51,677 nucleotides of DNA from a virus: IMG/VR virus record IMGVR_UViG_3300034175_000081, one strand, 5' to 3'. Within the stretch, counting starts at the first letter, position 1, and every line of letters begins with the position of its first letter. The notes beneath the pieces are model-generated. The model was not told the DNA's origin. It did no database searches and was given only the letters and a program-made list of their open reading frames with translations. Both the position numbers and the translations under genes were made by a program. Shown here one piece after another: positions 11,160-29,408 of the stretch.

Positions 11160-11721
11160 CCAACTTCCCGAGCCGCACGACTACGAAAATTGCCCCTACC
11201 CAGAAATCATCAACCCCCTGGTCGGGGTCGACAAGGCGGGACGATCGTCCGTTGACGGCCTGACCAAGCGGCAACGCGACTTTTGCGAAGCCGCGCTCGA
11301 TTTGATGCAAAAGGGGGAACATCACTGGAAGCGCGCGGCCGCGCTGGCCGCCGGTTACTCGGATTCGTGGGCGGCCTCGGCGGCATGGCAGATGATGCGG
11401 AACCCGGCGGTTCAGGAATATATCGGTTCGGCCCTGGCCGGTGCCGCGTCCAAAACGAAGGTCGACCGTTCCTATGTCTTGGCCAAGGCCCTAATCGGGG
11501 TCGAGATTGCCGAGGGCAAGGGCGACTTGCGCGCCATGCAGCGGTTCGTCGACATCGTCGCGAAGCACGTCGACGTTCAAGCGTTCACCCCCGACCCCGC
11601 GCCTGGTGCGCCCGGCGCTTCCGTCAACGTTCCATTCGGCCTAGACAAATTGTCGACCGATGAAAAACGCACCTTCCTCGACCTTCTCACCCGAGCAACC
11701 GCCGGGGTTGATCCCGTCTGA
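11152..11721 (+). CDS. terS: Terminase small subunit (Terminase_2-like)
   Basis: LTKRQRDFCEAALDLMQKGEHHWKRAAALAAGYSDSWAASAAWQMMRNPAVQEYI matches the small-terminase pattern (LT.kq..F...y.....qAa..AGYs...A...a..ll.np.v..yi). Lies directly upstream of the large subunit. Confidence 0.8.
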   Translation: MPSQLPEPHDYENCPYPEIINPLVGVDKAGRSSVDGLTKRQRDFCEAALDLMQKGEHHWKRAAALAAGYSDSWAASAAWQMMRNPAVQEYIGSALAGAASKTKVDRSYVLAKALIGVEIAEGKGDLRAMQRFVDIVAKHVDVQAFTPDPAPGAPGASVNVPFGLDKLSTDEKRTFLDLLTRATAGVDPV

Positions 11722-13396
11722 CCTGGTCGAGGCGCTTCGCGCTTCGATCCGTGAGGACGAACAGCGCGAGCAACGGGACGCCCTGAACCGCGACGCCGAG
11801 GCGATCCGGCGCAAGTGCAAGTCACTCTATCAGTTCGTGCAAGCCGCCTGGCCGATCGTCGAGCCGGGAACGACGTTCGTCGGCGGGTGGGCGATCGAAG
11901 CGATATGCGACCACCTGGAGGCGGTCAGCCGCGGCGAAATCAAGCGGTTGCTGATTAACGTCCCGCCCCGCATGTCGAAGTCGACAATGGTCGCCGTGTT
12001 CTGGCCGGCCTGGGAATGGGGGCCGCTGAACAAGCCCCACCTTCACTACCTCACCACGTCGTTTTCGGGTCCGAACATCATTCGCGACACCGGCAAAATG
12101 CGGTTGCTGGTCGAGTCCGAATGGTTTCAGCGGCTATGGGGCGACCAGGTCCAGCCGACGGACAAGTGGGGCGAAAAGCTCATCATCAATTCGGCCCGCG
12201 GCCAGCGCGAGGGTCGACCCTTTTCGAAGCTGACCGGCGGCGGCGGCGATCGGCTGATATTCGACGATCCCCACGACACGGAGGCCGCGGAGTCGTCCGT
12301 CCAGCGCAACCGGGTCGTGAAGACGTTTCGCGAGGGCCTATCGGATCGACTGCGCGACCCGAACAATTCTGTGATCGTCGGCGTCATGCAACGGCTTCAC
12401 GAATCCGACGTGTCGGGCGAAATCCTTCGGCTTCGGTTGCCCTATGTGCACCTGAACCTACCGATGGAATTCGAGGCCACCCGCAAGGAAGGCAACCGCC
12501 TGGTCAGTGCCCGGTGTCGCACGTACATCGACGGCGAGCTGTTTTTCGAAGACCCTCGGCAGAACGAAGGCGACTTGCTGTTCCCCGAACGGTTCAGCCG
12601 CGCCACCGTCGAGGCGACGAAGATCGTTAAGGGCGCGTATGCGTGGGCGGGTCAGTACCAGCAACGGCCAGCCCCGCGCGACGGCGGCCTGTTCAAGCGC
12701 GAATGGTTCGAAGGCGACGGCAGCGAAGGGTCGAGCCGGATCATCACCGACGGCAAAATCCCGGCTTGCACCCGTTGGGTTCGGGGGTGGGATTTCGCCG
12801 CGACCGCGAAGACGGCCGGGACCGATCCCGACAACACGGCAAGCTGTCTTATGGGGCGGACCCGCGACGGCCGCTACATCATCGCCCACGCCGGCCAGTT
12901 CCAGGAAGGCCCCGCGCAGACCGAACGCAACGTGAAGGCCCTCGCCGAAAACGACGGCAAGGGGGTGACGATCCGCATTCCCGAGGACCCCGCGGCCGGC
13001 GGCAAATACCTGGTGCGCGACATGATCCGGCTTTTAGCGGGTTGGGTCGTGCGCGTGGTGCGCGTTGCCGGGTCGAAAGAGGCCCGCGCCGGCCCCCTGG
13101 CGACGCAAGCCGAGCACGGGAACGTTTACCTGGTCGCGGGCAATTGGGTGGCCGAATGGCTCGACACCGTATGCAATTTTCCGAATGCGCGTTACGACGA
13201 CCTGGTGGACGCATCGGCCGACGCCTTCAATGAATTGTCGCCCGCGGCGAAGGACTCGCGCCACGCGGGGGCGGGGAACGATCGCAAGATGACCGGTCTA
13301 ATCGAAGAAACACAGGACGCCGAGCTAGCGCGACGCATCCACGCCACGAACCGAAGCGCTATCAGTGCACCAGGCCGAGCAAGGGGCATTTTATGA
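11660..13396 (+). CDS. terL: Terminase large subunit
   Basis: Walker-A-like NVPPRMSKST and Walker-B LIFDDPHD. C-terminal nuclease-like region (GWDFAATAK...DDLVDASADAF). The start is ambiguous: ATG 11660 overlaps terS by 62 nt, and TTG 11708 is the alternative. Confidence 0.85.
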   Translation: MKNAPSSTFSPEQPPGLIPSDLVEALRASIREDEQREQRDALNRDAEAIRRKCKSLYQFVQAAWPIVEPGTTFVGGWAIEAICDHLEAVSRGEIKRLLINVPPRMSKSTMVAVFWPAWEWGPLNKPHLHYLTTSFSGPNIIRDTGKMRLLVESEWFQRLWGDQVQPTDKWGEKLIINSARGQREGRPFSKLTGGGGDRLIFDDPHDTEAAESSVQRNRVVKTFREGLSDRLRDPNNSVIVGVMQRLHESDVSGEILRLRLPYVHLNLPMEFEATRKEGNRLVSARCRTYIDGELFFEDPRQNEGDLLFPERFSRATVEATKIVKGAYAWAGQYQQRPAPRDGGLFKREWFEGDGSEGSSRIITDGKIPACTRWVRGWDFAATAKTAGTDPDNTASCLMGRTRDGRYIIAHAGQFQEGPAQTERNVKALAENDGKGVTIRIPEDPAAGGKYLVRDMIRLLAGWVVRVVRVAGSKEARAGPLATQAEHGNVYLVAGNWVAEWLDTVCNFPNARYDDLVDASADAFNELSPAAKDSRHAGAGNDRKMTGLIEETQDAELARRIHATNRSAISAPGRARGIL

Positions 13397-15555
13397 GTCC
13401 GACCGATTATCGACTTGGGCGCGGATACCGCGAAAGCCTGGCCAAACAGGACGCCGGCCCGTTGCGCCAGGCGTCGCCGGCCGACGCCGGGCAAAAGGCC
13501 GACACGACCGGGACGATGTTCAGTCGGGCGTATGACGGGTTCGCGGCGGGTGCGTCATGGCTCGGCCAGCTCGCATTGATGAACGACAGCGTGTTGCAAC
13601 GTGAGGGCACGCGCGACCTAAAGCTGTTCAATGCGTTGCTCGACGACGACGTGGCCGCGACCGCCTTCGGTCAACGCCAGCTCGCGCTTGTAAAAGCCCC
13701 TTGGGTTGTCGAGCCGGGCGACCCCGACGACCCCCGGTCGGTCCTGGCGGCCGATGACCTTCGCGACATGATGAAGGTCGTCGGGTGGGATCGCGTTACC
13801 AAGTTGATGTTCTATGGCCGCTGGTTCGGATACGCGGTCGGCGAGTTCCTGTTCGAAATGCGCGTGCACAACGGTCGAACGATCGTATGGCTTCGCGACG
13901 TGGTCGTGCCCGATCGCAATTGGTTCCGGTTCACGAATGCCGGCGAGCTGCGGATGATAACGCCGAGCGACGCCGACGGCGTGCCCGTGCCGGCGAACCG
14001 GTTCTGGACCTATCGCACCGGTGCCACGCACGACTTCGAACACTACGGACTCGGCCTCGCCCATTGGTGCTACTGGCCGATATGGTTCAAGCGCAACGTT
14101 ATGCAGTTTTGGGCGCTGTATCTGGAGAAGTTCGGCCAGCCGACGGCGGTCGGATACTTCGAACCAGGGGCCGACCAAGACGAAATTGACAAGGTGCTGG
14201 CGGCCGCGAAGGCCATCGGCCAGGATTCGGCGGTCGCCTTCCCGGCCCCGCCGAGTTCGGTCGAGGGTGCCGGCGGCCCCGACCTTCGCCCCCACCTGAT
14301 CGAAGCGCAACGAAGCGGCTCGGGTGCCGAGTCCTATGACACGTTCACAAGCAAGATGGATGACGCCTTGCGCGGGATCATCATCGGCCAGCCTGGCACG
14401 TCGCGTTCGGCGTCGGATGGCCTGAACGGCAGTCAGGCCGAAGTTCACGAAGGCGTCGCGGCGACGCTGGTGACGGCCGACAGCGACGAATTCCACGAGT
14501 CCTACAGCCGCACCGCGCCGGCATGGCTGACCTTGTGGAACCACGGCCCCGACGTTGCCGCGCCGATCGTGTCGCGCAACTTCGAACAGAAGGAAGGCGC
14601 GGACACAATCGCCGAGCGCGATACCAAATTGAAGGCCCTCGGGTGGGATCGCACCGAAGACTCCTTCCGCGAAACCTACGGCGACGGATACGAAAAGGCC
14701 CCGCCGCCCCCGCCGCCCGTGATGCCAGGCGTGCGACCTGGTCGAGCTGGCCTTCCTGGTGCGGCGAACGACAACCCCGCCGACAAGCGGGTGGCCGTGT
14801 TCGCGGCTGGTGACCCTCGCCCCCTCTATATCTCGCGCAAGCTGCTGAACGGCGCGGCCCTGCTGAAATGGGCGAAGGAACAGGGCTTCACGAACCTGGT
14901 CGACGCCGACGAATTGCACGCGACGATTTGCTACAGCCGCACGGCCGTCGACTGGTTCGCGATGCCGTCCGACTGGTCGAGCAATGACGACGGAAGCGCC
15001 ACGGTCGAGCCTGGCGGCCCCCGCAAGGCCGAGCGCTTCGGCGACGACGCGGTCGTGCTCATGTTCAAATATTCGCGGTTCGCCTGGCGGAACGAAGAAT
15101 TGGTCGAGGCCGGCGCATCGCAGGACTATGACCCGTATCGGCCGCACGTCACCTTCGCCAAGGGCGAACAATCGGTCGACCTGGACAAGGTCGCGCCCTT
15201 CACGGACGCGCTCGAATTCGGTCCCGAGATATGGGAAACGCTCGACACCGACCCGCTTCACGGGGCGCTTGCGCCGACGTTCAGCGCGGCCGAGCTGGAC
15301 CGGATCGACGCTCTTGCGGCCGGCCTGGTCGCCGACACGGACCCTCTGTTTCAAGCGATGGGATCGGCAATGGCCTCGCGCGTGGCCGAGTTCGAAAGCG
15401 GCGGCATGCCGATGACCCCCGAAGCGTTCCGCGTGGCGATGCTCCAGACCTTCGAAACGCTCCCGCTGGACAAGGTCGCGAAGCTGCTAACCGTCCCGAT
15501 GGCCACCGCGCACGCCGCGGCCGCCGCTGGCGTCGAAGGATCGGTGACCGCGTAA
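13393..15555 (+). CDS. Portal protein (DUF935/Mu gp29-like) carrying an inserted 2H-phosphoesterase-like module
   Basis: ATGA overlap with terL. The core (DLKLFNALLDDDVAATAFGQRQLALV...WFGYAVGEFLFE...YLEKFGQPT) resembles DUF935 portals. At 720 aa it is longer than I would expect for a portal of this family (from memory; no comparison made), because of the segment at about 14800..15270. Confidence 0.85.
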   Translation: MSPTDYRLGRGYRESLAKQDAGPLRQASPADAGQKADTTGTMFSRAYDGFAAGASWLGQLALMNDSVLQREGTRDLKLFNALLDDDVAATAFGQRQLALVKAPWVVEPGDPDDPRSVLAADDLRDMMKVVGWDRVTKLMFYGRWFGYAVGEFLFEMRVHNGRTIVWLRDVVVPDRNWFRFTNAGELRMITPSDADGVPVPANRFWTYRTGATHDFEHYGLGLAHWCYWPIWFKRNVMQFWALYLEKFGQPTAVGYFEPGADQDEIDKVLAAAKAIGQDSAVAFPAPPSSVEGAGGPDLRPHLIEAQRSGSGAESYDTFTSKMDDALRGIIIGQPGTSRSASDGLNGSQAEVHEGVAATLVTADSDEFHESYSRTAPAWLTLWNHGPDVAAPIVSRNFEQKEGADTIAERDTKLKALGWDRTEDSFRETYGDGYEKAPPPPPPVMPGVRPGRAGLPGAANDNPADKRVAVFAAGDPRPLYISRKLLNGAALLKWAKEQGFTNLVDADELHATICYSRTAVDWFAMPSDWSSNDDGSATVEPGGPRKAERFGDDAVVLMFKYSRFAWRNEELVEAGASQDYDPYRPHVTFAKGEQSVDLDKVAPFTDALEFGPEIWETLDTDPLHGALAPTFSAAELDRIDALAAGLVADTDPLFQAMGSAMASRVAEFESGGMPMTPEAFRVAMLQTFETLPLDKVAKLLTVPMATAHAAAAAGVEGSVTA
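14800..15270 (+). other. 2H phosphoesterase-like domain (dual H-x-T motifs) inside the portal ORF
   Basis: LHATICYS (His codon 14917..14919) and RPHVTFAK (His codon 15145..15147) lie 76 residues apart. The segment is preceded by a PPPPPP hinge (14701..14718). Confidence 0.6.
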
Positions 15556-15801: not shown

Positions 15802-15975
15802 ATGCGCGCTATCATTTCCAAACACCTGACCGGCGCATTGCTCGCGCCTGGTGCCCTGATCGCCCTATCGGCATGCGACCGCACGTCGACCATCAACCCC
15901 CCGCCCGCGAACAGCTCGACCCCCGGCACGAACACGACCGCGCCGCACGAACCGGCGATGCCGTCCGACGATTGA
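15802..15975 (+). CDS. Small lipoprotein (57 aa; below the ORF-track cutoff)
   Basis: Strong SD aagggagg (15787..15794). Hand translation gives MRAIISKHLTGALLAPGALIALSACDRTSTINPPPANSSTPGTNTTAPHEPAMPSDD, with lipobox L-S-A-C. Confidence 0.6.
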   Translation: MRAIISKHLTGALLAPGALIALSACDRTSTINPPPANSSTPGTNTTAPHEPAMPSDD

Positions 15976-16027: not shown

Positions 16028-16885
16028 ATGACCCGCGCCCCGCTACTGTTCGACGCCAGCGAACGAACGTTCAACCCGACCAGCTTGCGGGTCGACGCGT
16101 CCGACCTGGTCCGGTTCATCGAAGCTAAGGACCCCCGCGCAATTGAGCGGTGGAACGACCTCGGCCCTGACGAATACGCCCGCGCCTTCACGGCCGCCGG
16201 CACCGCGGGCCGCGGGGTCATCGACGACCTATATTATGCCTATGTCGACACCCTGGAGCGCGGCGGCACCGAAGCCGACTTCGCTAAGGCCGTGATTCCG
16301 ACGCTCCAGGAAAAGGGATGGCTAGGCGGCGACAAGCGCGCAATCGCCCCGCGGGTTCACCTGATTTACGATACGAATTTGCGCCTGGCGCGTGGTGCCG
16401 GCCAATGGGATCGCATTCAAAAGGGCAAGGCGGCGCTCCCGTACCTTCGCGCCATCACCGCGCAGGACACGCGAGTACGCCGGCCGCCGCATTCGAAGCA
16501 TTCGGATCATCGGGCATGGGAAGGGATCATCCTTCCCGTGGATCATCCGTTCTGGACTCGGTATTGGGTGCCCCTCGGCTTCCGGTGCCGGTGCTCGATT
16601 ATCCCGATGACCCGATCGCAGCTCGCGAAGTCGACGGGGATCACCAGCGACGCCGAGCTGGCGCAACGCGAAGCCCGGCTCGGCCCGCCCGTGTTCAGCG
16701 CACCAGGCGGCGGCGTGTTTCAGCAACTATCCGAGGCAGTCAGGATAGAAAACGATCGCGACGACCGGATGCCCGGCCTTCCGCCCCTCGACCTGTCGGC
16801 CGATCGCCTGGCCGCGCGCGACCTATGGTCGGTTGAAACGGCCGCCCTTGCCGTCACGACTCTGTTCAATCGCATATTCGGCTAA
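16028..16885 (+). CDS. Head morphogenesis protein, Mu F / SPP1 gp7-like
   Basis: ITAQDTRVRRPPHSKHSDHRAWEGIILPVDHPFWTRYWVPLGFRCRCS matches the Phage_Mu_F pattern (D.rvR..H...dG......d.fW....PP....nCRC). Confidence 0.8.
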   Translation: MTRAPLLFDASERTFNPTSLRVDASDLVRFIEAKDPRAIERWNDLGPDEYARAFTAAGTAGRGVIDDLYYAYVDTLERGGTEADFAKAVIPTLQEKGWLGGDKRAIAPRVHLIYDTNLRLARGAGQWDRIQKGKAALPYLRAITAQDTRVRRPPHSKHSDHRAWEGIILPVDHPFWTRYWVPLGFRCRCSIIPMTRSQLAKSTGITSDAELAQREARLGPPVFSAPGGGVFQQLSEAVRIENDRDDRMPGLPPLDLSADRLAARDLWSVETAALAVTTLFNRIFG

Positions 16886-17068
16886 CGCCGGATTATAGAC
16901 GGTCGCCACGCAAACGACGGGGATCGCCTCGGCCGTGCGGTGCCCCACGACCAGGTAAGTGTTCACGAGATTGGTCAGGCCGACCAGGGCAAGCCCGATC
17001 GCGATAGCGCGCCACCGACTGCGCGCGGCGGCGACGGCTTCCTGGATGCTTTCGGTGCGGGGGGCCAT
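16823..17068 (-). CDS. Reverse-oriented small membrane protein (81 aa)
   Basis: ATG 17068 with ggag 11 nt upstream; high GC3. TM segment WRAIAIGLALVGLTNLVNTYLVV. The 3' end overlaps the convergent Mu-F-like gene by about 60 nt. Confidence 0.5.
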   Translation of the reverse strand: MAPRTESIQEAVAAARSRWRAIAIGLALVGLTNLVNTYLVVGHRTAEAIPVVCVATVYNPALAEYAIEQSRDGKGGRFNRP

Positions 17069-17133
17069 TGTGCTAGGTGCTCCGTTACAGGGTCGCGCGG
17101 GGCGCGGGTTGATCGGCAAGCGAAGGATCGAAC

Positions 17134-17547
17134 ATGGCCGCTTTTAATAAGTTCAATTCGTTCGTCGAGGCCATCGCCGAGAAGGGTCATAACCTCCAGG
17201 CTGACACCCTTAAAGTGATGCTGACGAACACGGCACCAGTCGCAACGAACACCGTCATTGCGAACATCGTCGAAATCGCGACCGGCAACGGTTACGCGGC
17301 CGGCGGCCCGCAAGCGACCGTGTCCAGCTCGGCGCAGACGGCCGGCGCTTATGCGTTGATCCTGGCCGACCTGGTCATCACCGCAGCCGGCGGTTCGATC
17401 GGTCCGGCGCGGTATGCGGTGCTCTACAATGCCACGGCCGGCTTGCTAATCGGCTGGTGGGATTATGGCGCGGCCTTCACCCTGGCCAGCGGGGAAACCC
17501 TCACGGTCGACTTCGACAACGCCGCCGGTGTCCTGACCCTCGCATAA
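17134..17547 (+). CDS. Hypothetical virion-associated protein (137 aa)
   Basis: SD gaagga. ORF track MAAFNKFNSFVEAIAEKGHNLQADTLKVMLTNTAP... First gene of the fibre/glycosidase cluster. Confidence 0.7.
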   Translation: MAAFNKFNSFVEAIAEKGHNLQADTLKVMLTNTAPVATNTVIANIVEIATGNGYAAGGPQATVSSSAQTAGAYALILADLVITAAGGSIGPARYAVLYNATAGLLIGWWDYGAAFTLASGETLTVDFDNAAGVLTLA

Positions 17548-17557
17548 GGCCGAACCG

Positions 17558-17800
17558 ATGAAGCTCCCCACGCCCGAAAAACTGCGCGCCCGGTTCGCCG
17601 AGCTGGCCGCCGATCGCGAAGCCGTGATGAACGCCACCGCGCCGTTGCGTGCCGAGCGCGACGACTTGTCGGCCGACACCGCGGCACGGGTCGCGCGCAT
17701 CGACGCGCAAATCGCCGAGCTGACCGAAGGGCTGTTCGACGCCGACAACGAAGCCGCCATGATCGCCCGCGCGCTCGGCGGCAAAACGGCCCTCGAATAG
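17558..17800 (+). CDS. Hypothetical helical protein (80 aa)
   Basis: ORF track; coiled-coil-like. Confidence 0.6.
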   Translation: MKLPTPEKLRARFAELAADREAVMNATAPLRAERDDLSADTAARVARIDAQIAELTEGLFDADNEAAMIARALGGKTALE

Positions 17801-18072
17801 TGGGCCTGGCGCGCAAAAAGGCCCCCACCGACGGCACCAGCGAAGCCGATTTCGACCCCTTGCGCCCGACGCGCACGCCGTCGCGGGTCGACATGGAGTC
17901 CGAGCTGAACCGCGACCAGGCCCGCGCGTGGATCGCGAGCGCGCGGAAGTTCAACCTGACCGGCAAGGAAGTGGCCTTCCTGGCCGGTATGGAAGCTGAC
18001 ATGCTGGTCACCACCTGGTCGCCGACGGTGCGCGAGTGGAACCGCCTTAACGACCTGGCCGAAGGATATTAG
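17800..18072 (+). CDS. Hypothetical protein (90 aa)
   Basis: GTG start sharing 1 nt with the preceding stop; ORF track. Confidence 0.6.
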   Translation: MGLARKKAPTDGTSEADFDPLRPTRTPSRVDMESELNRDQARAWIASARKFNLTGKEVAFLAGMEADMLVTTWSPTVREWNRLNDLAEGY

Positions 18073-18075
18073 GGC

Positions 18076-18807
18076 ATGATCGCCGACCGCGTATCTGTGA
18101 ACACGGCCACCGTCGGAACGGGCGCGGTCACCCTCGGCGCGGCCTTGCCCGGCTTCCGCAGCTTCGCGGCCGCCTTCCCCGCCCCCGCCACGACGACGGT
18201 CGATTATCTGATTGTCGAGGGCGTCAATTGGGAAACGGGAACGGGCGTGTTCACGCTCGCGACCGGCGTCCTGACCCGCACCCCCGTTGCCAGCTCGGCC
18301 GGCGGCGCGGCGATTGCGCTCGCCGGTGCGGCGGTCGTGTCGGTGTCCTACCTGTCGCGCACGAATGTTCCCGACTGGCCGGTGATGACCGTCGGCCGCA
18401 ACGGCGGCGCGACCGCCTTTCAAACGCTACCCGCCGCGTTCACGACATTGCAGCTAAACACCGCGCCGTCGATCGACACTCACGGCGGTTTCAGCACGTC
18501 GACTTACCTCTACACCGTGCCGGCCGGGCAAGATGGCGTTTACGATATTCAGGGCAAGATTCGGCCGATCGACGCGACGGCCGCAAGCCTCGGGTTCGGG
18601 GTCGGTATCGACATCGCGAACCAGGACACGCCCGATTTCCTTTGGACCACGACCAGCCCTAGCGCGCAGTCGGTAAGGCGGCACGGCAGCTACAATAGCC
18701 GGTTGATGCCGCTTGTCGCCGGCCAGCAAGTGCGGCTGTTCGGCTTCGCAGACGCCGGCAACCTGGCGATCGTCGGGGCCTCGCTAACCATCGCGCGGAT
18801 TCGATAA
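18076..18807 (+). CDS. Tail-fibre-like protein with a possible C1q/TNF-like C-terminal head
   Basis: Gly/Ala/Thr-rich N-terminus. The C-terminal STYLYTVPAGQDGVYDIQGKI...QVRLFGFAD resembles the C1q jelly-roll pattern (F.aP..G.Y.F...). Confidence 0.6.
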   Translation: MIADRVSVNTATVGTGAVTLGAALPGFRSFAAAFPAPATTTVDYLIVEGVNWETGTGVFTLATGVLTRTPVASSAGGAAIALAGAAVVSVSYLSRTNVPDWPVMTVGRNGGATAFQTLPAAFTTLQLNTAPSIDTHGGFSTSTYLYTVPAGQDGVYDIQGKIRPIDATAASLGFGVGIDIANQDTPDFLWTTTSPSAQSVRRHGSYNSRLMPLVAGQQVRLFGFADAGNLAIVGASLTIARIR

Positions 18808-21468
18808 GTGAGCGGGTTCGGTCCCGTCGCCGCGGGGCCGGTTGCGGCCGTTTCCGCCGACGCAATCGTGGTCGCCGCCACGCCCATTGTCGCGGCCGAT
18901 GTCGGCGCACCGTATCGCTACAATCAGGGTTACCCGACCCGCTATTTCCTCGGCGACACCTTTTCGTTCGCCTGGTCCGACAACAATGTCGATTACTCGC
19001 CGTCGAACGACAGCCGCGGTTTCCAGGGATCGACCCCGACCAGCAACATTTCGTTCAATAGCTGGAGCGGGTCGCCGCCGCTGAACAACATCGTGGGAAC
19101 GCTGGTCAACCGGATGCCGCAATTCGGCACCACGAACCAGCTCGGGACCGACGGCGCGAGCTATAAAACTGGCGGCCTCTTGTCGCAGGGCGGCACGCTC
19201 TACTTGTGGACCAGCCGCCATAAGTACGGGTCGAACGCGAACGGCAACATTCAGACCGCGAACAACGCGCAGCTAATCAAGTCGACCGACAAGGGGGTGA
19301 CCTGGTCGCCGCTCCCGCCGAGCACGGCCAACCCCTTCGCCGCGCCGATGTTCACCGACACGAAGTTCAGCACGCCTTGGTTCGTCCAGTACGGCAAGGA
19401 TGGCCAGGTTCCCGACGTGCACAACTCGGCGCTTTATGCCTATGCGCTGTCGAATAACGGGAGCTGGAACAACGGCGATTCAATGGTCATCGGCCGTTGT
19501 CTTCGCTCGGCGCTTCCGAACCTGTCGGCCGCCGATTGGTCGTTCTATCAGGGCGGCGACGGCATGCTGGACGCGTCGTGGGGCGCGCTCGCGACCGCCG
19601 CGACGATCGTCAATGATCCGAAAAAGGTCGCCGCGAACGGCGCGCAGTATATCCCGGCGACCGGCCGCTATGTAATGTTTCAGTGGCACTATCCGTTCGT
19701 CGTTGCCGCGCAAGACAACGTGTATGGCGGCCCCGATCCGAAGACCGGGAACACGGTTTGGTCGGTGTATGAAAGCCCGACGCCGTGGGGTCCCTGGACC
19801 AAGATTCAAACGATCAAGTGGAACCTGCTAGGCGTCTATAACGGCAACGTCATTCCGCGCAGCGTGTCGGTCGACGGCGGGAGTAACATCGTTGTCGCGG
19901 CCTCGGGTGACTACGGCGAAAGCGGCGCGACCGAAGGTTACTACACGCTGATTCAGATCCCCGTCGCACTCCGCACGACGGGCGCGCTTCCCGCCGAGCC
20001 GGTTTGCACGGCCGACCCCGTCATCACCGGCCTAATCAAGCCCGGCGAAGTGGTGACGTGTTCGCCCGGCACCTGGACGAATAGCCCGCACAGCTTCCTT
20101 TACCAGTGGCGGAACCAGGCCGGGCAATGGCTCTACCTGTCGAACAAGCCGACCTATTTGCAGCATCCCGGCGACGGCATCCCGCAATGCGATGTCGTGG
20201 CGATCAACGCGGCCGGCACCAGCGAGATTAAGCGGGTGTCGCACCTTGGCCAGGCCGAGCCGGCCGACCCGTCGGTTATCCGCGTCGGCTTCGACCTATC
20301 GCGCAAGGCTTTCCCGGTCGTGTTCTCGGCCGATTATCTGACCATCACGCAAACGGGTGACGGGTTCCAGATGACGCCGACCGTCTATAAGTCGGACGGC
20401 GCTTGGTATGGCGAAATGACGGTCAGTCAGGGGCCGGGGATCGCGATCGGCTTCGCGAACACGCTGTCGCCGCTGGTCCAGGCATATGCCGGGCAAGACG
20501 CGAATTCGATCGGCATGTATCAGGACGGATACGCCGGCAACAATGTGATCGGTTACCCCGCGCTAGTCGGGTCGTATGGCGCTGGCGCTGTCATCCGGTG
20601 GGCGATGAAGCCCGCGCTCGGGAAGGTATGGCTGGCGGTCAACGGCGGGGCCTGGAATGGCGACCCCGTCGCCGGCACCGGCGGCCTTGCGATCCCCGTC
20701 GCCGGTGGCGTCGCCCCTGTCGCGTACACCGACGCGCCCGGCGCTTCGGTCACCGCGAACAACGGATACGTCGCGACGACCTACGCGAAGCCGACCGGCT
20801 TTTCGACGCTCGACAGCCCGGCGACGAACAAGTCGCTGGTGGCGGCGCGCGGCGTGGTCACCGTCACCGGCCGGCCGTCGAACCTGGTCCGCGGGTTCCA
20901 GCTCGCCGCCTCGCGCGGGACCTTCACCGCGACCGGCCAGGCGGTCGGCACGTCGTCGGCTCGGGTGCTCCCGGCCGCGCCTGGTGCGTTCGTCATCACC
21001 GGCCAGGCGATGACCTTCCGCCGGTCCTATGCCCTGGCCGCCAGCTCGACCGCCGTCGCGTTCCAGGGGCGCGCGGCAACCCTGATCGTCGGCAAGCGGC
21101 TACAGCTCGCCGCCGGGTCGTTCGCCCTCACGGGCCTGGCCATGACGATGAACAAGCTCGGCGCGCTGTCGGTCCTGGCCGCCACCGGCGCGTTCGCGAT
21201 GACCGGCCAGGCCGCCACCTTCCGCACTGACCGCCGCCTGGTCGCCGATCGCCGCGACGTGGTGCTGACCGGGCGCGCGATGACCTTCCGGCGAGGGCTG
21301 AAAATGACGGCCGCGCCGGGCGCTTTCGCCTTCACTGGCAACGCGACGGCCTTCGCTCGCGTGTTCTTCGGCGTGCCCCCGGCGTCGATGACGATCCGGC
21401 TATATGACGACGGGCCGCGAGTCGTTACACTACGCGACAGCGGGGCGCGCTCCGTCACACTTTTCTAG
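18808..21468 (+). CDS. Tailspike-like protein: BNR/Asp-box beta-propeller (DUF4185/sialidase-like) plus a C-terminal 22-aa repeat array
   Basis: GTG directly after the previous stop. Asp-box S-T-D-K-G-V-T-W (19279..19308). The surrounding WSVYESPTPWGPWTKI and YYTLIQIP resemble DUF4185-type glycosidases. Repeats at 20830..21365. Confidence 0.75.
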   Translation: MSGFGPVAAGPVAAVSADAIVVAATPIVAADVGAPYRYNQGYPTRYFLGDTFSFAWSDNNVDYSPSNDSRGFQGSTPTSNISFNSWSGSPPLNNIVGTLVNRMPQFGTTNQLGTDGASYKTGGLLSQGGTLYLWTSRHKYGSNANGNIQTANNAQLIKSTDKGVTWSPLPPSTANPFAAPMFTDTKFSTPWFVQYGKDGQVPDVHNSALYAYALSNNGSWNNGDSMVIGRCLRSALPNLSAADWSFYQGGDGMLDASWGALATAATIVNDPKKVAANGAQYIPATGRYVMFQWHYPFVVAAQDNVYGGPDPKTGNTVWSVYESPTPWGPWTKIQTIKWNLLGVYNGNVIPRSVSVDGGSNIVVAASGDYGESGATEGYYTLIQIPVALRTTGALPAEPVCTADPVITGLIKPGEVVTCSPGTWTNSPHSFLYQWRNQAGQWLYLSNKPTYLQHPGDGIPQCDVVAINAAGTSEIKRVSHLGQAEPADPSVIRVGFDLSRKAFPVVFSADYLTITQTGDGFQMTPTVYKSDGAWYGEMTVSQGPGIAIGFANTLSPLVQAYAGQDANSIGMYQDGYAGNNVIGYPALVGSYGAGAVIRWAMKPALGKVWLAVNGGAWNGDPVAGTGGLAIPVAGGVAPVAYTDAPGASVTANNGYVATTYAKPTGFSTLDSPATNKSLVAARGVVTVTGRPSNLVRGFQLAASRGTFTATGQAVGTSSARVLPAAPGAFVITGQAMTFRRSYALAASSTAVAFQGRAATLIVGKRLQLAAGSFALTGLAMTMNKLGALSVLAATGAFAMTGQAATFRTDRRLVADRRDVVLTGRAMTFRRGLKMTAAPGAFAFTGNATAFARVFFGVPPASMTIRLYDDGPRVVTLRDSGARSVTLF
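20830..21365 (+). repeat. About 8 tandem, degenerate 66-nt (22-aa) repeats, consensus L.AA.G.F..TGQA.TFRR
   Basis: Units read from the translation: LAASRGTFTATGQAVGTSSARV / LPAAPGAFVITGQAMTFRRSYA / LAATGAFAMTGQAATFRTDRR / LVADRRDVVLTGRAMTFRRGLK / MTAAPGAFAFTGNATAFARV, and others. Confidence 0.8.
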
Positions 21469-21477
21469 GGCGGCGCA

Positions 21478-21864
21478 ATGGTGATTCCGACTTCCGCGAC
21501 GAAGCTCCCGCAGGACCTGGACCCGTTTGACGTGGATTGGTTCGGGGTCGACATTTCGCGCGGCGTCCAGGGGGTGACCCCCTTCCCGATCCTTGCGCCT
21601 GGCGAAAACGTCGCCGCGTTCACGGTCCAGCCGCAACCCGAGGCGGTCGACGCCGGGCTGATTATCATGTCGGGCAACGGCTACCCGCAAGCCGCCATCG
21701 TCGGCACGACCCTGTCGATTTATCTCGCCGTCGCCGAGGCGAAACAGAGCAATAGCAAGTTCGACGTGGGAATGTTGCTTGGCATCGAATTGAGCATCAC
21801 GACCGACGCCGTTCCGCCGCGCAAGAAACAGCGCACGTTCACCGTTCTAATCATCAATAAATAG
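21478..21864 (+). CDS. Hypothetical protein (128 aa), possible fibre adaptor
   Basis: ORF track MVIPTSATKLPQDLDPFDVDWFGVDISRG... Sits between two glycosidase-like genes. Confidence 0.65.
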   Translation: MVIPTSATKLPQDLDPFDVDWFGVDISRGVQGVTPFPILAPGENVAAFTVQPQPEAVDAGLIIMSGNGYPQAAIVGTTLSIYLAVAEAKQSNSKFDVGMLLGIELSITTDAVPPRKKQRTFTVLIINK

Positions 21865-21878
21865 GAGCGACCCGACCA

Positions 21879-23942
21879 ATGACCCGACAAGCCTTTCGCC
21901 TGGTGGGGGTCGGCCTTGCCATCTCCACCGCGGCCGCCTTCGGCCCCCTACTGACCGCGCCAATCGTCGCGCAGACGATCGCCGGTTGTGGCACGACAGC
22001 CATCCCGAAAACCGACCTGAACAGCATCGAACGGCTAACCGCCGGGATCGTGTGTCGCGAAAAGGCCATCACCAGCGGCAACGCCGGGATCGCGGTTCGT
22101 CGCGACCGGGTGAAGGCCCTCACGCCGGCCCCCACGCCCACGCCAGCCCCGACGCCAGCCCCGACGCCAGCCCCGACGCCGGCACCGACCCCCACGCCCA
22201 CCCCGACCCCCGTCGTGGTGACCTGGACGCCATGCGCGAAGGAAGACGCGGTTTGCACCCCGCCGGCCCCCGCCCTGGTGCGCTACGGCGTCGGCGACAA
22301 GTTCCGCTATCTGACCGCCTCGGCCCCCGTGACGTGCGGCAACAAGGTTTTCGGAGACCCGATCGTCGGCACCGTCAAGTCGTGTTCCTATTCGCTGAAC
22401 GCGCCCGTTCCCGCCGGCACCGCGGCCGCGCCGGCTGTCGTGGTATCGCCCACCCCGACGCCCGCGCCGACTCCTTCGCCGACCCCCACGCCCACGGTCG
22501 GCGTCGTGCCGGCGACCCGCATCGGCGTGAACGTCGCCCCGTCGAGCTATTACAACACCGAACGCATTTATGTGAATTTGGTCGAGGGTAGCGGCGGCTG
22601 GAAAGACTCGACCGCGGGGTGGGGATCGACCGCGGCGGAAAAGCTGAACGCGGCCGGCTTCCCGATCGTGGAAGGGCAATGGATGCCCCTTGTGCCGCCG
22701 CGCGAGCTTTGGGCGGGTGGGTCGGCGACGATCGCGTGCACCTGGTCGGGTGACGGCCAGTTCAGCGTCGATGGCATGGCGCGGGGTTGGCTCGCCGCAA
22801 GCGGCCAGTCGTTCACCGTGTCGGGGTTCGATCGCAGCAAGGGCGGGTTCCCCGCCATCCGCATTTCGCCCAAGGGGATGACGACCGCGAAGCCGCTGTC
22901 GTCGCTCGATTGCCGGGAAGCCGGCGTGCAAGCTGTCGGTCGGTTCGAACAGAAGTTCGTCGACGACATGAAGCCGTTCGCGGTGCTGCGATTCCTGGAC
23001 TGGAGTAGCACGAACGGCAATCCGGCAAGTGTGACGTGGGCGACGCGCGCGACGCCCGACCACGGCGGGAGCGACGGCACCCCCCTGGAATATATGATCG
23101 ACCTGGCGAACGCCGCGGGAACCGACGCCTGGTTCACGATCGCCTACAATGCCGACGCCGATTATGTTCGCCGGGCGGGCGAGCTGGTGCGGGATCGCCT
23201 GGCACCCGGTCACCGGGGATATTTCGAGCTGTCGAACGAAGTGTGGAATTTCGCCTTTTTGGTCGCTCGCCAGGCTGTCGAGGAAGGCGCGAAACAGGTC
23301 CCGCCCCTGTCGAGCGACTACTATTCGAACAACCCGCTTCGGTACGCGCAGAAGACAATCGAATTTCACAAGGTCCTAACCCCCGTGTTCGCGGCGAACC
23401 CGTCGCGCCTGGTGCGCGTCGTGGCGTCACAGAACGCGAATTCCTGGACCGTCCGCACGATCCTGGCGTTTCCCGGCCTGGTCGATTGGGTCGACGCGCT
23501 CGCGACCGCGCCTTACTTCGGCGGCGACATATTCAACGCCCCGAACGACACGGCCACCCTGGCCGACCTTCCCGCCGCCTTCGCCCGCCTGGAGGCGGGG
23601 CGCGTAAACTCGATTGCGAAGGCCCTCGAAAACAAGGCCGCGGCCGCCAAGTACGGCAAGCGATTCATCGCTTACGAAGCCGGGCAACATATCGTCGTGA
23701 AGCCCGGCCCCCTGGCCGAGGTTGCCGCGGCCATGCAGCGGTCGCCGTTGATGGGCGAGGCTTATGACCGATACCTGGCCGACTGGCGCGCAAAGATCGG
23801 CGACGACCTGGTGATATACGCGGCGACCGGGACAATCTCTCAATATGGTTCGTGGGGGATTCGTGAGTACGCCGGCCAGCCGATCGCCGAGACGCCGAAG
23901 CGGCGCGCGGTGCTCGACGCCATCGCGGCGACCGCGAAGTGA
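21879..23942 (+). CDS. Secreted modular glycoside hydrolase (clan GH-A-like TIM barrel) with a Sec signal peptide, Pro/Thr linkers and a Cys-rich module
   Basis: SD aggagcg. Signal peptide MTRQAFRLVGVGLAISTAAAFGPLLTAPIVAQ. Cys-rich module CAKEDAVCTPPAPALVRYGVGDKFRYLTASAPVTCGNKVFGDPIVGTVKSCSY. Putative acid/base FELSNEVWN (about 23222..23250) and nucleophile AYEAGQH (about 23670..23690). Confidence 0.75.
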   Translation: MTRQAFRLVGVGLAISTAAAFGPLLTAPIVAQTIAGCGTTAIPKTDLNSIERLTAGIVCREKAITSGNAGIAVRRDRVKALTPAPTPTPAPTPAPTPAPTPAPTPTPTPTPVVVTWTPCAKEDAVCTPPAPALVRYGVGDKFRYLTASAPVTCGNKVFGDPIVGTVKSCSYSLNAPVPAGTAAAPAVVVSPTPTPAPTPSPTPTPTVGVVPATRIGVNVAPSSYYNTERIYVNLVEGSGGWKDSTAGWGSTAAEKLNAAGFPIVEGQWMPLVPPRELWAGGSATIACTWSGDGQFSVDGMARGWLAASGQSFTVSGFDRSKGGFPAIRISPKGMTTAKPLSSLDCREAGVQAVGRFEQKFVDDMKPFAVLRFLDWSSTNGNPASVTWATRATPDHGGSDGTPLEYMIDLANAAGTDAWFTIAYNADADYVRRAGELVRDRLAPGHRGYFELSNEVWNFAFLVARQAVEEGAKQVPPLSSDYYSNNPLRYAQKTIEFHKVLTPVFAANPSRLVRVVASQNANSWTVRTILAFPGLVDWVDALATAPYFGGDIFNAPNDTATLADLPAAFARLEAGRVNSIAKALENKAAAAKYGKRFIAYEAGQHIVVKPGPLAEVAAAMQRSPLMGEAYDRYLADWRAKIGDDLVIYAATGTISQYGSWGIREYAGQPIAETPKRRAVLDAIAATAK
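22121..22212 (+). repeat. Pro/Thr/Ala linker encoded by a degenerate 12-nt repeat (ccagccccgacg)
   Basis: Encodes TPAPTPTPAPTPAPTPAPTPAPTPTPTPTP. A second shorter linker lies at 22447..22497. Confidence 0.85.
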
Positions 23943-24238
23943 CCGTCGTTCGCGGCACCGTAAACAACGGCTGGTCGAGCGACGTTGACTTGCCGTTCTA
24001 CAAGGGCGCGGCCGGCGCGCAGTTCGGCCCCGTGGGGCAAACGGACCCCGCAAGGGTGCGCTTCGGCTATGCCGGCGCGATCGTGCGGGACATGGTCGGG
24101 GCGAAGGGAACGGCCACCGTCCCCGACCCCCTGGACCCCGACAACATGATGACGGTCGCCGTGACGGTGACCGATGCGACCAAGAGCGATACCACGAAGG
24201 GCTTCGTGACCTTCACGGCCACAATCGACCGCGACTAG
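23939..24238 (+). CDS. Hypothetical protein (99 aa)
   Basis: GTGA overlap with the glycosidase gene. Its stop TAG and the convergent gene's stop share the tetranucleotide CTAG at 24235..24238. Confidence 0.6.
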   Translation: MTVVRGTVNNGWSSDVDLPFYKGAAGAQFGPVGQTDPARVRFGYAGAIVRDMVGAKGTATVPDPLDPDNMMTVAVTVTDATKSDTTKGFVTFTATIDRD

Positions 24239-24492
24239 AGCCTGGCCAGCTCGGCGGGGGTGCACTTTCGGGCACTCCCGCTAGGCGGTTGCCACCGTGG
24301 CAACCAGCGTTTCATTCCCCGCACCTGGCGGCATTGCCAGCAATCCACCGTCGGCGGGGCCGGCTCCAGGACTTCGGCCCGCGCGCCGCATTCGCACCCG
24401 TAGCACGCGACCGGCTGGCGGTTCGGATCGTCCGACGGCTCGGGTTTGGCCTCCAGCTCGGCCGCGAATTGGGCGAACATATTGTCGGTCAT
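24235..24492 (-). CDS. Small Cys-rich protein (85 aa), last gene of the reverse island
   Basis: ATGA overlap upstream. Cys pairs ACYGCECG and DCWQC suggest a zinc ribbon. Confidence 0.6.
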   Translation of the reverse strand: MTDNMFAQFAAELEAKPEPSDDPNRQPVACYGCECGARAEVLEPAPPTVDCWQCRQVRGMKRWLPRWQPPSGSARKCTPAELARL

Positions 24493-24695
24493 GTCGAGTG
24501 CCAGAAACAGCGGTCAGGGTCGGTGATGTCGCAACAGCCGCAATGATCGTCCGAGTCCCATTCGACTTCATGGCCGTCGTCGGTCCAGGCGATATGGGGG
24601 CCGGCATGGTTGACCGCCAGCGGGCACCCGCGCAGCTCGCCGAGCCGGTTTTCGAACGGCCGCCTGGCCGGGGGCAGGACATGACACGCGGTCAA
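24489..24695 (-). CDS. Small Cys/His-rich protein (68 aa)
   Basis: TTG start in a TTGA overlap. Contains DDHCGCCDITDPDRCFWH. Confidence 0.55.
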   Translation of the reverse strand: MTACHVLPPARRPFENRLGELRGCPLAVNHAGPHIAWTDDGHEVEWDSDDHCGCCDITDPDRCFWHST

Positions 24696-25042
24696 CGCAC
24701 GTCGGCCAGGTCGGGGTCGCTCGGGTCAACGCCGTTCGCCTCGGCCATCGCCCGATAATTGTCGAACAGCTCCAGGCCGCCGCTTCGGTCGAGCCGGTCG
24801 AGCCGGTGGAATGAATAGGCCAGGCGAACGGCAAGGTTATGATCGGCCCCGCGCTCCAGGAACCCGGCGCACGCCATCGCGTCGCCGTCGGAAGTTTTGT
24901 GGCAAGTGAATATGCCGAACGACATATCGCGCGCGGTGGCGGCCAGCTCGCGAAACCGGTCGGGTCGAAACTCGCCTGGCGGGACATCGGTTCGCCAGGG
25001 GCAATTCGCGCACGGCCGGCGCGTAGCGGGAAGGTCGTTCAC
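24692..25042 (-). CDS. DUF6283-like protein (116 aa)
   Basis: GTG 25042 in a GTGA overlap with the RNase H stop. Contains RRPCANCPWRTDVPPGEF...FTCHKTSDGDAMACAGFL. The family assignment is from memory of the CxxCPWR pattern. Confidence 0.6.
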   Translation of the reverse strand: MNDLPATRRPCANCPWRTDVPPGEFRPDRFRELAATARDMSFGIFTCHKTSDGDAMACAGFLERGADHNLAVRLAYSFHRLDRLDRSGGLELFDNYRAMAEANGVDPSDPDLADVR

Positions 25043-25632
25043 GCCCCGACCTCCCGAGCCTGGCGAAGGCGTCGGCTTTCCTGTTCGCCGATCATCGCTT
25101 CGTGTTGCTCTTTGCGCTCGCGCCGCCGCTGTCGGCCCGCCACCTGTTCGACTAAGGCGTTGTAACCGGCCGGCTTGCGACCGTCGCGAATGGCGCTGCA
25201 AAGATGATCGCACCGGATATTATGGATCGCGTGCGGGTCCGCGCTGTCTAGCCGCTGGTGCCCCCTTACCCATTTCGCCCGCAACGCGATCCCGTGTCGC
25301 TCGGCCAGGTCCAGGACATAGCCGACGGCCTTTCCGATCGTCGGACACTTCGCGTTGCGCGCCGCGCCGTTGATCCGGCCGACCGCGCCGCGATTATCCG
25401 AACGCATCGTGACCAGGTCGCCGCCCTCCACAAGGCCGTTGATGCGCGCGAAGTGAAGGGCGTTCGCCATTGCCGCGGCCTCGACAGCGGTCGACGACGG
25501 GAAGTTCCCGCGCAGCGCGCCGGCCGATTCGTGACGCTCATCACCGCGCAGCACGACGCACGCCCACGCGCCCCGGCCGCCCTTCACAATGCTGGCGTCG
25601 GTGTAAATGTCGACGTTCACCCGACCAGCCAT
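25039..25632 (-). CDS. RNase HI-like ribonuclease H with a basic C-terminal tail
   Basis: The DEDD catalytic pattern is recognisable: VDIYTDAS (D), STAVEAAAMANAL (E), TMRSDNRG (D), WVRGHQ...IRCDHL (D). The C-terminus is RQRRRERKEQHEAMIGEQESRRLRQ. Confidence 0.8.
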   Translation of the reverse strand: MAGRVNVDIYTDASIVKGGRGAWACVVLRGDERHESAGALRGNFPSSTAVEAAAMANALHFARINGLVEGGDLVTMRSDNRGAVGRINGAARNAKCPTIGKAVGYVLDLAERHGIALRAKWVRGHQRLDSADPHAIHNIRCDHLCSAIRDGRKPAGYNALVEQVAGRQRRRERKEQHEAMIGEQESRRLRQAREVGA

Positions 25633-25997: not shown

Positions 25998-26161
25998 CAG
26001 TGCACCAGCCCGCCGGTGACGGCGGCCATGATGGCGGCCCCGATGACCGCGGCCACTAGCAACAGGATTCCGCAACCCTCGGCCGTCGTGATGCGCTCCA
26101 GGGCGGCGTCGGCGGGGTCGGGCTGTTCGGTGTAAGGCTCGCGCCCGCGATAGTCGGTCAT
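25994..26161 (-). CDS. Small membrane protein (55 aa; below the ORF-track cutoff)
   Basis: Hand translation gives MTDYRGREPYTEQPDPADAALERITTAEGCGILLLVAAVIGAAIMAAVTGGLVHW. ATGA overlap upstream (26158..26161) and GTGA overlap downstream. Confidence 0.5.
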   Translation of the reverse strand: MTDYRGREPYTEQPDPADAALERITTAEGCGILLLVAAVIGAAIMAAVTGGLVHW

Positions 26162-26436: not shown

Positions 26437-26449
26437 CGGGTCACCCTCT

Positions 26450-28322: not shown

Positions 28323-28339
28323 ATTCGCTGCTGACGAAT
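28323..28339. promoter_or_regulatory. Perfect dyad ATTCG-N7-CGAAT, 13 nt upstream of the PAPS-reductase-like start codon
   Basis: attcgctgctgacgaat. In minus sense it reads CGAAT-aggaagcgccacg-ATG, the same geometry as at 26450..26466. Confidence 0.65.
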
Positions 28340-28351
28340 GATCGTATCGGC

Positions 28352-28369
28352 GCGTTTTGGCCAAAACGC
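28352..28369. promoter_or_regulatory. Perfect 18-bp palindrome GCGTTTTGGCCAAAACGC midway between two dyads
   Basis: Read directly. The centre (28360/61) lies 29.5 and 27.5 bp from the centres of the flanking ATTCG-N7-CGAAT sites. Confidence 0.55.
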
Positions 28370-28379
28370 AACAGGAATA

Positions 28380-28396
28380 ATTCGCGCGCAGCGAAT
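28380..28396. promoter_or_regulatory. Perfect dyad ATTCG-N7-CGAAT upstream of the scaffold/capsid operon
   Basis: attcgcgcgcagcgaat, 61 nt upstream of ATG 28458. Confidence 0.65.
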
Positions 28397-28457
28397 GAAC
28401 CCCGCGCGCGACCGTTCAGGCTGTCAGAAACACGCTCCCGTCGGCTATCTTTCGTGC

Positions 28458-29408
28458 ATGGAAATCGAAGTATTTCGCGCAGGAAACGCCGCCGCAAACG
28501 CGGCCGGGATCACCGCGGCCGACCTGGCCGACATCGCGGCGTTCGATTGCGCCGCGCATCCCGTGCCGAACGTCATCGGCCACCCGTTGACCGACAGCCC
28601 CGCGCGCGACCGCGTCGTGAAGTTCCGCGCCGAGGGCAACAGCCTATTCGCCGACGTGCCGGAAGCGTCGCCCGCATTCGCGCCGGTCGTCGAGGGCATC
28701 CGCAAGTCGGAAATCTTGAACCGGTCGATGGCGTTTTTTGGCAAGTCGCACCCGTCGAACCCGACGCCCGGCAAGCTCGCGCCGAAGCATCTAGGCTTCC
28801 TCGGCGGCGCGGCCCCCGGCGTGTTCGGAATGCCCCCGCTCGCGCAGTCGTTCGCCTTTTCGGCCGACGACGCGCTGTCGATCGCGGGCGACCCCGCCCC
28901 GGCGGTCGTGTTCGAAGCGGCTCCGACCGCCGTTATCACCTTTACCGAACCACCGGCGGCACCGGCCGCCCCGACCCTGGAGAATACCAACGTGACAGAG
29001 GCCGAACAGCTCGCCGCCGACAAGGCCAAGTTCGAAGCCGACAAGGCCGAGCACGACGCGAAGGTCGCGGCATTCGCCGCCGACCAGGCAACCGCCCGCA
29101 AGACGGCCAACGCCGCGACGGTCGACGGCCTGGTCGCCGCAACGAAGGTGCTCCCGTCGGATCGCGACGCCCTGGTCGAGGCGTTCAACGCCGCCGAGGA
29201 AGGTCAGGTGCTCGCATTCGCATCGGACGCCACCAAGGCCGTGTCGCCCGTTTCGATCATCGCCGGCATTCTCGCCAAGGGCGGGAACGTCGTCGAGCTG
29301 TCGGCCGACCCGCTGTCGCCGACCTTCGCCGCCCCGACGGACGCGACCGCCGCGGCCGCCGCGCTCGAAAAGGTCCGCGCCGACAAGCGCGCCAACTACG
29401 GCAAGTAA
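28458..29408 (+). CDS. Capsid scaffolding protein / prohead protease (GPO-like), tentative
   Basis: The N-terminus MEIEVFRAGNAAANAAGITAADLADIAAFDCAAHPVPNVIGHP resembles P2 GPO-type proteins. Ala-rich helical C-terminal half. Position is immediately upstream of decoration and major capsid genes. The start is uncertain: in-frame ATGs at 28338 and 28395 overlap the dyads. Confidence 0.65.
   Translation: MEIEVFRAGNAAANAAGITAADLADIAAFDCAAHPVPNVIGHPLTDSPARDRVVKFRAEGNSLFADVPEASPAFAPVVEGIRKSEILNRSMAFFGKSHPSNPTPGKLAPKHLGFLGGAAPGVFGMPPLAQSFAFSADDALSIAGDPAPAVVFEAAPTAVITFTEPPAAPAAPTLENTNVTEAEQLAADKAKFEADKAEHDAKVAAFAADQATARKTANAATVDGLVAATKVLPSDRDALVEAFNAAEEGQVLAFASDATKAVSPVSIIAGILAKGGNVVELSADPLSPTFAAPTDATAAAAALEKVRADKRANYGK

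Follow-up and report, generated by a model that had tools for sequence, protein, structure and literature searches.

An Acb1-family phosphoesterase module inserted into a Mu-type phage portal protein

Cyclic-oligonucleotide-based antiphage signalling systems (CBASS) are among the commonest antiphage defences of bacteria, and Acb1 is the best-known enzyme by which phages antagonize them. The virus record IMGVR_UViG_3300034175_000081, a phage genome or contig of ~51.7 kb (51,677 nucleotides, 66% GC; this whole stretch is hereafter called the window), encodes a portal protein of 720 amino acids (aa) in which residues ~471–620 are an Acb1-family 2H phosphoesterase module with two HxT motifs. An Acb1-like 2H module within the portal had been proposed in a preliminary description of this DNA, and it is confirmed here by a profile match, by fold comparison, by residue conservation and by the existence of related portals devoid of the domain. 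These relatives also identify the Acb1 cassette as a true insertion in a Mu-type portal, and one that the portal can dispense with.

Acb1 was described from phage T4, where it is the product of gene 57B, and from Erwinia phage FBB1 (PDB 7T26/7T27) (Hobbs et al., 2022; PMC9117128). The Acb1 profile PF23474 matches the window protein with an E-value of 3.7e-33 and 114.7 bits, where the gathering score is 27, over profile positions 2–140 of 144; for comparison, the Acb1 proteins of T4 and FBB1 score 203 and 197 bits. LigT-type profiles reach ~15 bits on the same domain and stay under their cutoffs, 2_5_RNA_ligase2 giving an E-value of 0.017. A sequence search of the PDB returned residues 465–610 of the portal of cyanophage Pam3 (8HDS, E 1e-28) and FBB1 Acb1 (7T26, E 2e-6). 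The AlphaFold2 model of the domain alone has a predicted local distance difference test score (pLDDT) of 92.2, and the first two ranks in its Foldseek comparison are Acb1 without ligand (7t26) and with cGAMP (7t27), with template modelling (TM) scores of 0.70–0.78 and an E-value of 5e-8. Below Acb1 come a phosphodiesterase of Burkholderia phage BCSR5 and then Escherichia coli LigT and other 2H enzymes. In PHROGs, the matches of the protein are to a portal family and to phrog_755 'RNA ligase', and the C-terminal profile positions of phrog_146 'portal protein' align with the Acb1 part. The words 'RNA ligase' also stand in GenBank/RefSeq on T4 57B (L007 1953–2411) and on its counterparts in many T4-like phages, as an old label of Acb1. 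The BCSR5 phosphodiesterase (PDB 9q2y/9q2g) is a recent release in open- and closed-lid forms, for which a literature search found no describing paper.

The two histidine motifs named in the preliminary description are present as described. The first, LHATICYS, holds H509 (CAC codon, nucleotides 14917–14919), and the second, DYDPYRPHVTFAK (RPHVTFAK in the open reading frame), holds H585 (CAC codon, 15145–15147), 76 residues after H509. H-x-T/S triplets number only three in the whole 720-aa protein, so the pair of motifs would by itself say little. The functional residues were read, in T4 numbering, from an alignment in which 109 portal-embedded homologues were set against the proteins of T4 and FBB1 and five others from phages. 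H44/T46 of T4 correspond to H509/T511 (His in 107 and Thr in 108 of the 109 homologues) and H113/T115 to H585/T587, where the His is kept in every homologue and Thr or Ser in 108. Among the ligand contacts, Y12 corresponds to Y479, which is kept in 108 of 109, F107 to Y579, at a position occupied by Tyr, Phe, His or Trp in 105, and E141, the adenine N6 contact, to E615, with Glu in 99. Since HxT motifs and ligand contacts are near-invariant across homologues that are 40–70% identical, selection is indicated on catalysis and on part of the ligand cradle, and the portal-tethered domain is probably an active Acb1-type enzyme.

Other features depart from T4 Acb1. W74 aligns with E547 and appears unconserved, in a gapped part of the alignment with an invariant F549 two residues on, and W147 of the lid corresponds to P621, where Trp is found in only 17 of the 109 homologues. 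In T4 Acb1 the lid consists of residues 145–152 and closes over the ligand (PMC9117128). Its equivalent in the window protein (aa 618–631) is modelled with low confidence and runs on into the 90-aa tail, so that there is no free C-terminal lid. Conversely, an invariant GGPR loop characterizes the portal-associated Acb1 clade and is missing from T4 and FBB1. The substrate range may consequently differ from that of T4 Acb1. As to numbering, the residue numbers that Hobbs et al. (2022; PMC9117128) give for the FBB1 structure (W74, F107, H113, T115, E141 and W147) fit the T4 sequence; the GenBank FBB1 Acb1 (L006 523–981) is offset by +1 from the F107 motif onwards relative to T4 Acb1 (L007 1953–2411).

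The protein that carries this domain is a Mu-type portal by its profile match, its portal fold and the position of its gene directly after that of the terminase large subunit (TerL) (Table 1). The reading frame was placed correctly in the preliminary description, as were the DUF935/Mu gp29-like core, which is the PF06074 match, the PPPPPP hinge (aa 437–442) and an Ala-rich helical tail. In the full-length AlphaFold2 model, built on 91 homologues, the portal core extends to ~aa 430 (pLDDT mostly >85) and is followed by a disordered linker (aa 447–470, pLDDT <50), the Acb1-like domain (aa ~475–620, mostly >90), a second disordered stretch (aa 623–630, <50) and four C-terminal helices (aa 632–712, pLDDT 60–84); the top Foldseek matches of this model are the JBD30 and Mu portals. 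The Pfam scan gave no family for the tail (aa 632–720), and the NCBIfam scan of the portal protein gave no match. Six contigs from several assemblies encode an identical 720-aa protein, and the fusion is thus not an artefact of assembly or frameshift.

The preliminary description regarded the module as an insertion, and comparison with DUF935 portals agrees. In the ten closest portals without PF23474 (P0107–P0118), the same Pro-rich linker with its A-N-D motif runs straight into the same conserved tail, FSAxExDAIDRL...EGARVALL...AERAAAxAG. The clearest pair consists of P0071 (729 aa) and P0114 (569 aa), which are 96.5% identical over 569 positions and are otherwise set apart by a clean indel of 160 aa corresponding exactly to the Acb1 module. 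Two more plus/minus pairs, more distantly related, have the same indel pattern. A neighbour-joining tree built on the portal core intersperses Acb1-less portals with Acb1-bearing ones, which argues that the cassette has been gained or lost repeatedly without harm to the portal. The Acb1-less relatives keep the gene order of the window, and no separate Acb1 gene is recorded near their portal genes. The GC content at third codon positions is 0.83 in the insert and 0.80 in the rest of the gene; with such a composition the insert gives no sign of recent foreign origin in the window genome. Within the otherwise variable linker the A-N-D motif (aa 458–460, nucleotides 14764–14772) is semi-conserved: N459 is kept in 99 of 120 sequences, Acb1-less portals included, and the motif could be a processing or docking site.

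The statement in the preliminary description that no portal-embedded 2H enzyme had been described does not hold. 2H domains fused to MuF or Portal have been reported, and their packaging into heads and injection proposed (Iyer et al., 2022, Viruses 14:1977, section 3.4.5, PMC9503650). The combination of PF06074 and PF23474 is precomputed for >100 clusters at 90% identity, mainly from metagenomic contigs of 40–52 kb, and the portal of Pam3, whose structure has been solved, has this domain as well. A tblastn search with the Acb1 domain against 50,697 phage records gave 490 hits, with portal-embedded copies in Rhizobium phages (RHEph04/05/06, RHph_*), Pseudomonas phages (phiPSA1, MR15, psageB2) and phages of Synechococcus, Pseudanabaena (Pam3), Aminobacter and Sinorhizobium. 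The three cultured-phage copies inspected are Phage_portal_3 proteins (PF06381) with Acb1 at the extreme C-terminus. Coverage of the window portal by the cultured phages of this collection never exceeded 57%, so that all Mu-type internal versions known so far come from metagenomes. HMMER, run exhaustively, found 1733 clusters at 50% identity, and among the best 150 of their representatives 102 are portals (92 Phage_portal_3 and 10 Portal_Mu); as the classes were assigned by phmmer against portal cores, which leaves divergent carriers unclassifiable, the other 48 are counted as 'other'. The fusion type is therefore widespread and already published, and the internal insertion in a Mu-type portal is a distinct layout.

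Some carriers hold more than one effector. Phage_portal_3 portals of 1003–1132 aa have Acb1 followed by an Alt/VIP2-type ADP-ribosyltransferase (ART) exoenzyme domain, and proteins of 1567–1744 aa combine Acb1 with NUDIX; the database proteins P0217, P0171, P0206, P0266 and P0250 are of these portal-Acb1-ART and Acb1-NUDIX types, which are multi-effector arrays on head proteins. GenBank labels also suggested fusions of Acb1 to a 'prohead protease' in Roseobacter phage DSS3P8 and Edwardsiella phage ZHS. These were rejected as mis-annotated standalone proteins, namely the Acb1-like DSS3P8 gp129 (L002 4992–5444, 150 aa) and ZHS_4 (L005 2116–2715, 199 aa). In phage ZHS the standalone gene sits between the terminase and portal genes.

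Comparison with known systems helps to define what is particular to the window. The window domain shares with Acb1 the PF23474 family, the 2H fold, the HxT/HxT tetrad and the equivalents of Y12, F107 and E141. In contrast to Acb1, a standalone protein of 152 aa made early or in the middle of infection, the window domain is internal to a 720-aa portal, has the additional GGPR loop, apparently lacks equivalents of W74 and of lid W147, and has a linker and tail in place of the lid. Closer relatives are the Phage_portal_3 proteins with C-terminal Acb1, such as Pam3 gp3 (8HDS), RHEph04 gp10 and those of phiPSA1/psageB2. These belong to the same Acb1 subclade (36–47% identity), with the GGPR loop, a linker after the portal core and the gene order TerL, portal, MuF-like. 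They differ in portal family, in the position of the domain at the extreme C-terminus with no tail after it, and in being known from cultured phages; furthermore, the C-terminal domains of Pam3 and RHEph04 have a Trp in or beside the lid position, whereas the window domain has P621. The fusions of Iyer et al. (2022; PMC9503650) are of the same architecture class and led to the same inference of head packaging and injection against oligonucleotide immune signalling. That remark is a single computational sentence which predates or ignores the Acb1 label and makes no distinction between portal families, between insertion and terminal fusion, or between gain and loss. The Acb1 discovery paper (PMC9117128), the Pam3 structure paper and the later Acb1 literature that was searched do not mention a portal fusion, and our literature search found no dedicated study and no experimental test of portal-Acb1 delivery; it returned only the sentence of Iyer and colleagues.

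Taken as a whole, the reading that we favour stands about evenly between right and wrong: an anti-CBASS Acb1 cassette in the extension of a Mu-type portal is loaded into the head, freed at a linker and ejected with the DNA, and is perhaps also active in the producing cell. The cassette of ~160 aa would be a self-contained unit within the flexible C-terminal extension, between the Pro-rich linker and the helical tail. By homology, its substrates would be adenosine-containing CBASS signals of the 3'-5' cyclic di- and trinucleotide kind, hydrolysed through metal-independent acid-base catalysis by the H509-x-T511/H585-x-T587 tetrad, with Y479 and Y579 predicted to stack on the bases and E615 to read adenine. 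As part of the portal polypeptide, the enzyme would be produced with the late head genes, and twelve copies would be placed in each prohead on the crown side, toward the capsid interior. Cleavage in a flexible linker would then free the enzyme to enter the next host together with the DNA; it might additionally act in the cell that makes the phage, during the build-up of portals and open proheads. The parts that we infer are the substrate, the release by proteolysis and the ejection. T4 Acb1 cleaves cGAMP, cUA and cAAA, cyclic di- and trinucleotides that all contain adenosine, and spares cGG and cA4, and cCMP and cUMP are substrates of Apyc1 (PMC9117128). In the substrates that the preliminary description listed, CBASS therefore fits, and Pycsar, type III CRISPR and Thoeris-type signals are too broad a claim.

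The location of the domain can be deduced from the portal fold. In established portal structures the crown faces the capsid interior, and it does so in the Mu structure. The module comes after the crown end of the core and is consequently expected inside the head. The model reproduces the 2H fold that the preliminary description asked about, with Acb1 as best match, but not the outer-face location suggested there. A domain inside the head must be released, or must act before DNA fills the head. Carriage, release and ejection are supported indirectly by the fusion of Acb1 to two unrelated portal families, by its co-residence with ADP-ribosyltransferases of the Alt type, a class that is packaged and injected in T4, and by the fate of Mu gp29, whose last 124 residues are missing from the virion structure, a loss that the authors of that structure attribute to protease I. 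Mu gp29 resembles the window portal in its PF06074 family and in a C-terminal region beyond the crown that is absent from the virion structure; its extension has no enzyme domain and no sequence similarity to that of the window. T4 Alt and internal proteins, MuF-fused toxins and polyvalent proteins likewise have effector domains on head-internal proteins, and T4 acb1 adjoins ipI. The difference from injected effectors of the T4 Alt type is that the window carrier is a portal, which stays in the capsid and from which the enzyme would have to be released. Anti-CBASS activity in a virion protein is known from the ICP3 ejectosome protein Gp15 (bioRxiv 10.1101/2025.07.23.666291), which is unrelated and inhibits the CapV effector stoichiometrically, with no degradation of the signal.

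Several points weigh against this favoured reading. Identity to characterized Acb1 is only ~27%, two of the four base-stacking aromatics (W74 and W147) appear unconserved, and a linker plus 90-aa tail takes the place of the free lid, changes that may alter specificity. The portal itself remains in the capsid, and a folded domain of ~17 kDa would need to unfold to pass the channel. Pfam and NCBIfam scans of the candidate head maturation protease or scaffold (28338..29408) gave no match. This 356-aa protein has no similarity to Mu gpI, the window portal tail has none to the C-terminus of Mu gp29, and the analogy with Mu is thus positional only; a comparison with the Pam3 scaffold gp5 likewise gave no similarity. 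The Acb1 domain of the Pam3 portal, though 36% identical, is absent among the Foldseek structural hits, and is consequently not in the virion model. This absence can be counted in favour of the reading, as it fits a flexible and a cleaved domain alike, but it fits equally well a loss before the virion is mature. The literature search also found no enzymatic or virion-proteomic data on any portal-borne Acb1. A bolder version, in which the extension is a general cargo arm, the maturation protease cuts Acb1 loose inside the head for ejection along with the genome, and the apparent loss of W74 and the lid Trp might widen or shift the range of substrates, is tentative and less likely than not.

Among the other explanations, the one that deserves most attention is that the fusion does no more than tie production of Acb1 to the late expression of the head genes. 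In that case the domain would do its work in the cell that makes the phage, either on free portal rings or in open proheads permeable to cyclic nucleotides, timed to the stage at which virion assembly triggers CBASS, and the copy in the virion would be an inert passenger. This agrees with the translational coupling of the portal and terminase genes within the late head module, with the retention of the portal in the capsid, with the failure to demonstrate either a protease site or protease homology, and with the unresolved Acb1 domain of the Pam3 virion. Standalone Acb1-like genes in the terminase–portal region, as in phage ZHS, fit a benefit of timing that is obtained without fusion. Co-expression, however, needs no covalent fusion, and yet the fusion occurs on two unrelated portal families and predominates in this Acb1 clade (102 of the 150 nearest cluster representatives). 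Moreover, Alt-like ADP-ribosyltransferases, of the class that T4 packages and injects, ride on the same extension, and the flexible linkers that flank the domain resemble tethers or cleavage regions. We judge that expression timing is rather unlikely to be the whole explanation.

Two further alternatives concern the activity of the domain. It might be a general 2H enzyme that processes RNA or nucleotide ends, perhaps a 2',3'-cyclic phosphodiesterase or a LigT-like ligase, with a part in RNA repair or in a step related to packaging and none in the degradation of immune signals. The secondary matches to 2_5_RNA_ligase2, below cutoff, and to phrog_755 'RNA ligase' are weak pointers in this direction, together with the LigT structures lower in the Foldseek list and the apparent loss of two substrate-stacking Trp of Acb1. 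This is improbable given that the Acb1 profile scores ~100 bits above the LigT-type profiles, that the best structural matches are Acb1 crystal structures and that the Glu contacting adenine is kept in 99 of 109 homologues; in addition, the name 'RNA ligase' on T4 57B was given to Acb1 itself in older annotation, and a cassette that the portal can dispense with is not a packaging component. Even less credence can be given to the idea that the domain is without catalysis and serves the portal as a structural part or decoy, such as a spacer or internal plug. Such a role would suit a domain that is located in a structural protein and is known from sequence and model, but it would explain neither the near-invariance of HxT motifs and ligand contacts among homologues 40–70% identical nor the near-identical portals that manage without the domain.

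If Acb1 were routinely carried in virions, phages would arrive pre-armed against cyclic-nucleotide signalling, which would shift the view of timing in the CBASS arms race. The C-terminal extension of the portal would also be a natural cargo-loading site of the capsid, useful for engineered phages. Were the cassette in addition shown to be cut free and ejected, it would be the first case of a virion-delivered enzyme demonstrated to destroy an immune second messenger ahead of any phage gene expression. The window itself adds a clean Mu-type example and no new principle. The natural plus/minus pairs of this portal family are good experimental material for the virion-delivery hypothesis.

Table 1. 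Features of the portal-Acb1 protein and of the head gene region in the window (nucleotide positions).
Feature	Position	Strand	Evidence or remark
TerS	11152-11721		gene-order context
Terminase large subunit (TerL)	11660..13396	+	phrog_38 E 1e-77; PF17289 Terminase_6C
Portal-Acb1 fusion reading frame	13393..15555	+	720 aa plus stop codon
Mu-type portal core, aa 77-430	13621..14682	+	PF06074 Portal_Mu E 7e-69
Pro-rich flexible linker, aa 431-470	14683..14802	+	PPPPPP 14701-14718; A-N-D motif aa 458-460
Acb1-family 2H phosphoesterase domain, aa 471-620 (Pfam envelope aa 477-620)	14803..15252	+	PF23474, domain model, Foldseek
First catalytic HxT motif, H509-A-T511	14917..14925	+	aligns with T4 Acb1 H44/T46
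Second catalytic HxT motif, H585-V-T587	15145..15153	+	aligns with T4 Acb1 H113/T115
Second short flexible linker, aa 621-631	15253..15285	+	at position of standalone-Acb1 C-terminal lid
Conserved helical C-terminal tail, aa 632-720	15286..15552	+	present too in Acb1-less relatives P0107-P0118
Reading frame of 57 aa between portal and MuF-like genes	15802-15975		called on 3/3 contigs inspected
MuF / SPP1 gp7-like minor head protein	16028..16885	+	phrog_220 E 3e-41; PF04233 29.8 bits vs cutoff 29.6
Candidate head maturation protease or scaffold, 356 aa	28338..29408	+	phrog_976 E 5e-35
Cement protein	29452-29889		PF22758
Major capsid protein	29923-30888		PF09950

The gene order in the window is TerS, TerL, portal-Acb1, the 57-aa reading frame, the MuF-like gene, a variable block of ~11 kb, the protease or scaffold candidate, the cement protein, the major capsid protein, and connector and tail genes. 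The ATG of the portal gene overlaps the TerL stop codon as ATGA. The block between the MuF-like and protease or scaffold genes (16900–28330) contains large reading frames of no clear family, including 18808–21468 (886 aa, with a weak sub-threshold match to DUF4185) and 21879–23942 (687 aa), as well as minus-strand genes for a PAPS-reductase-like (27566–28309) and an RNase H-like protein (25039–25632). In the Acb1-less relatives L008 and L009 the same slot is occupied by other, mainly small minus-strand genes, and the block looks like a variable cargo island within the head module. Further downstream, the tail region has two adjacent and very large reading frames (35151–43271) of 1268 and 1434 aa with no Pfam match; the first of the pair, which the PHROG scan covered, has no PHROG match either. 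Both are presumably tape measure or tail fibre/host-recognition proteins.

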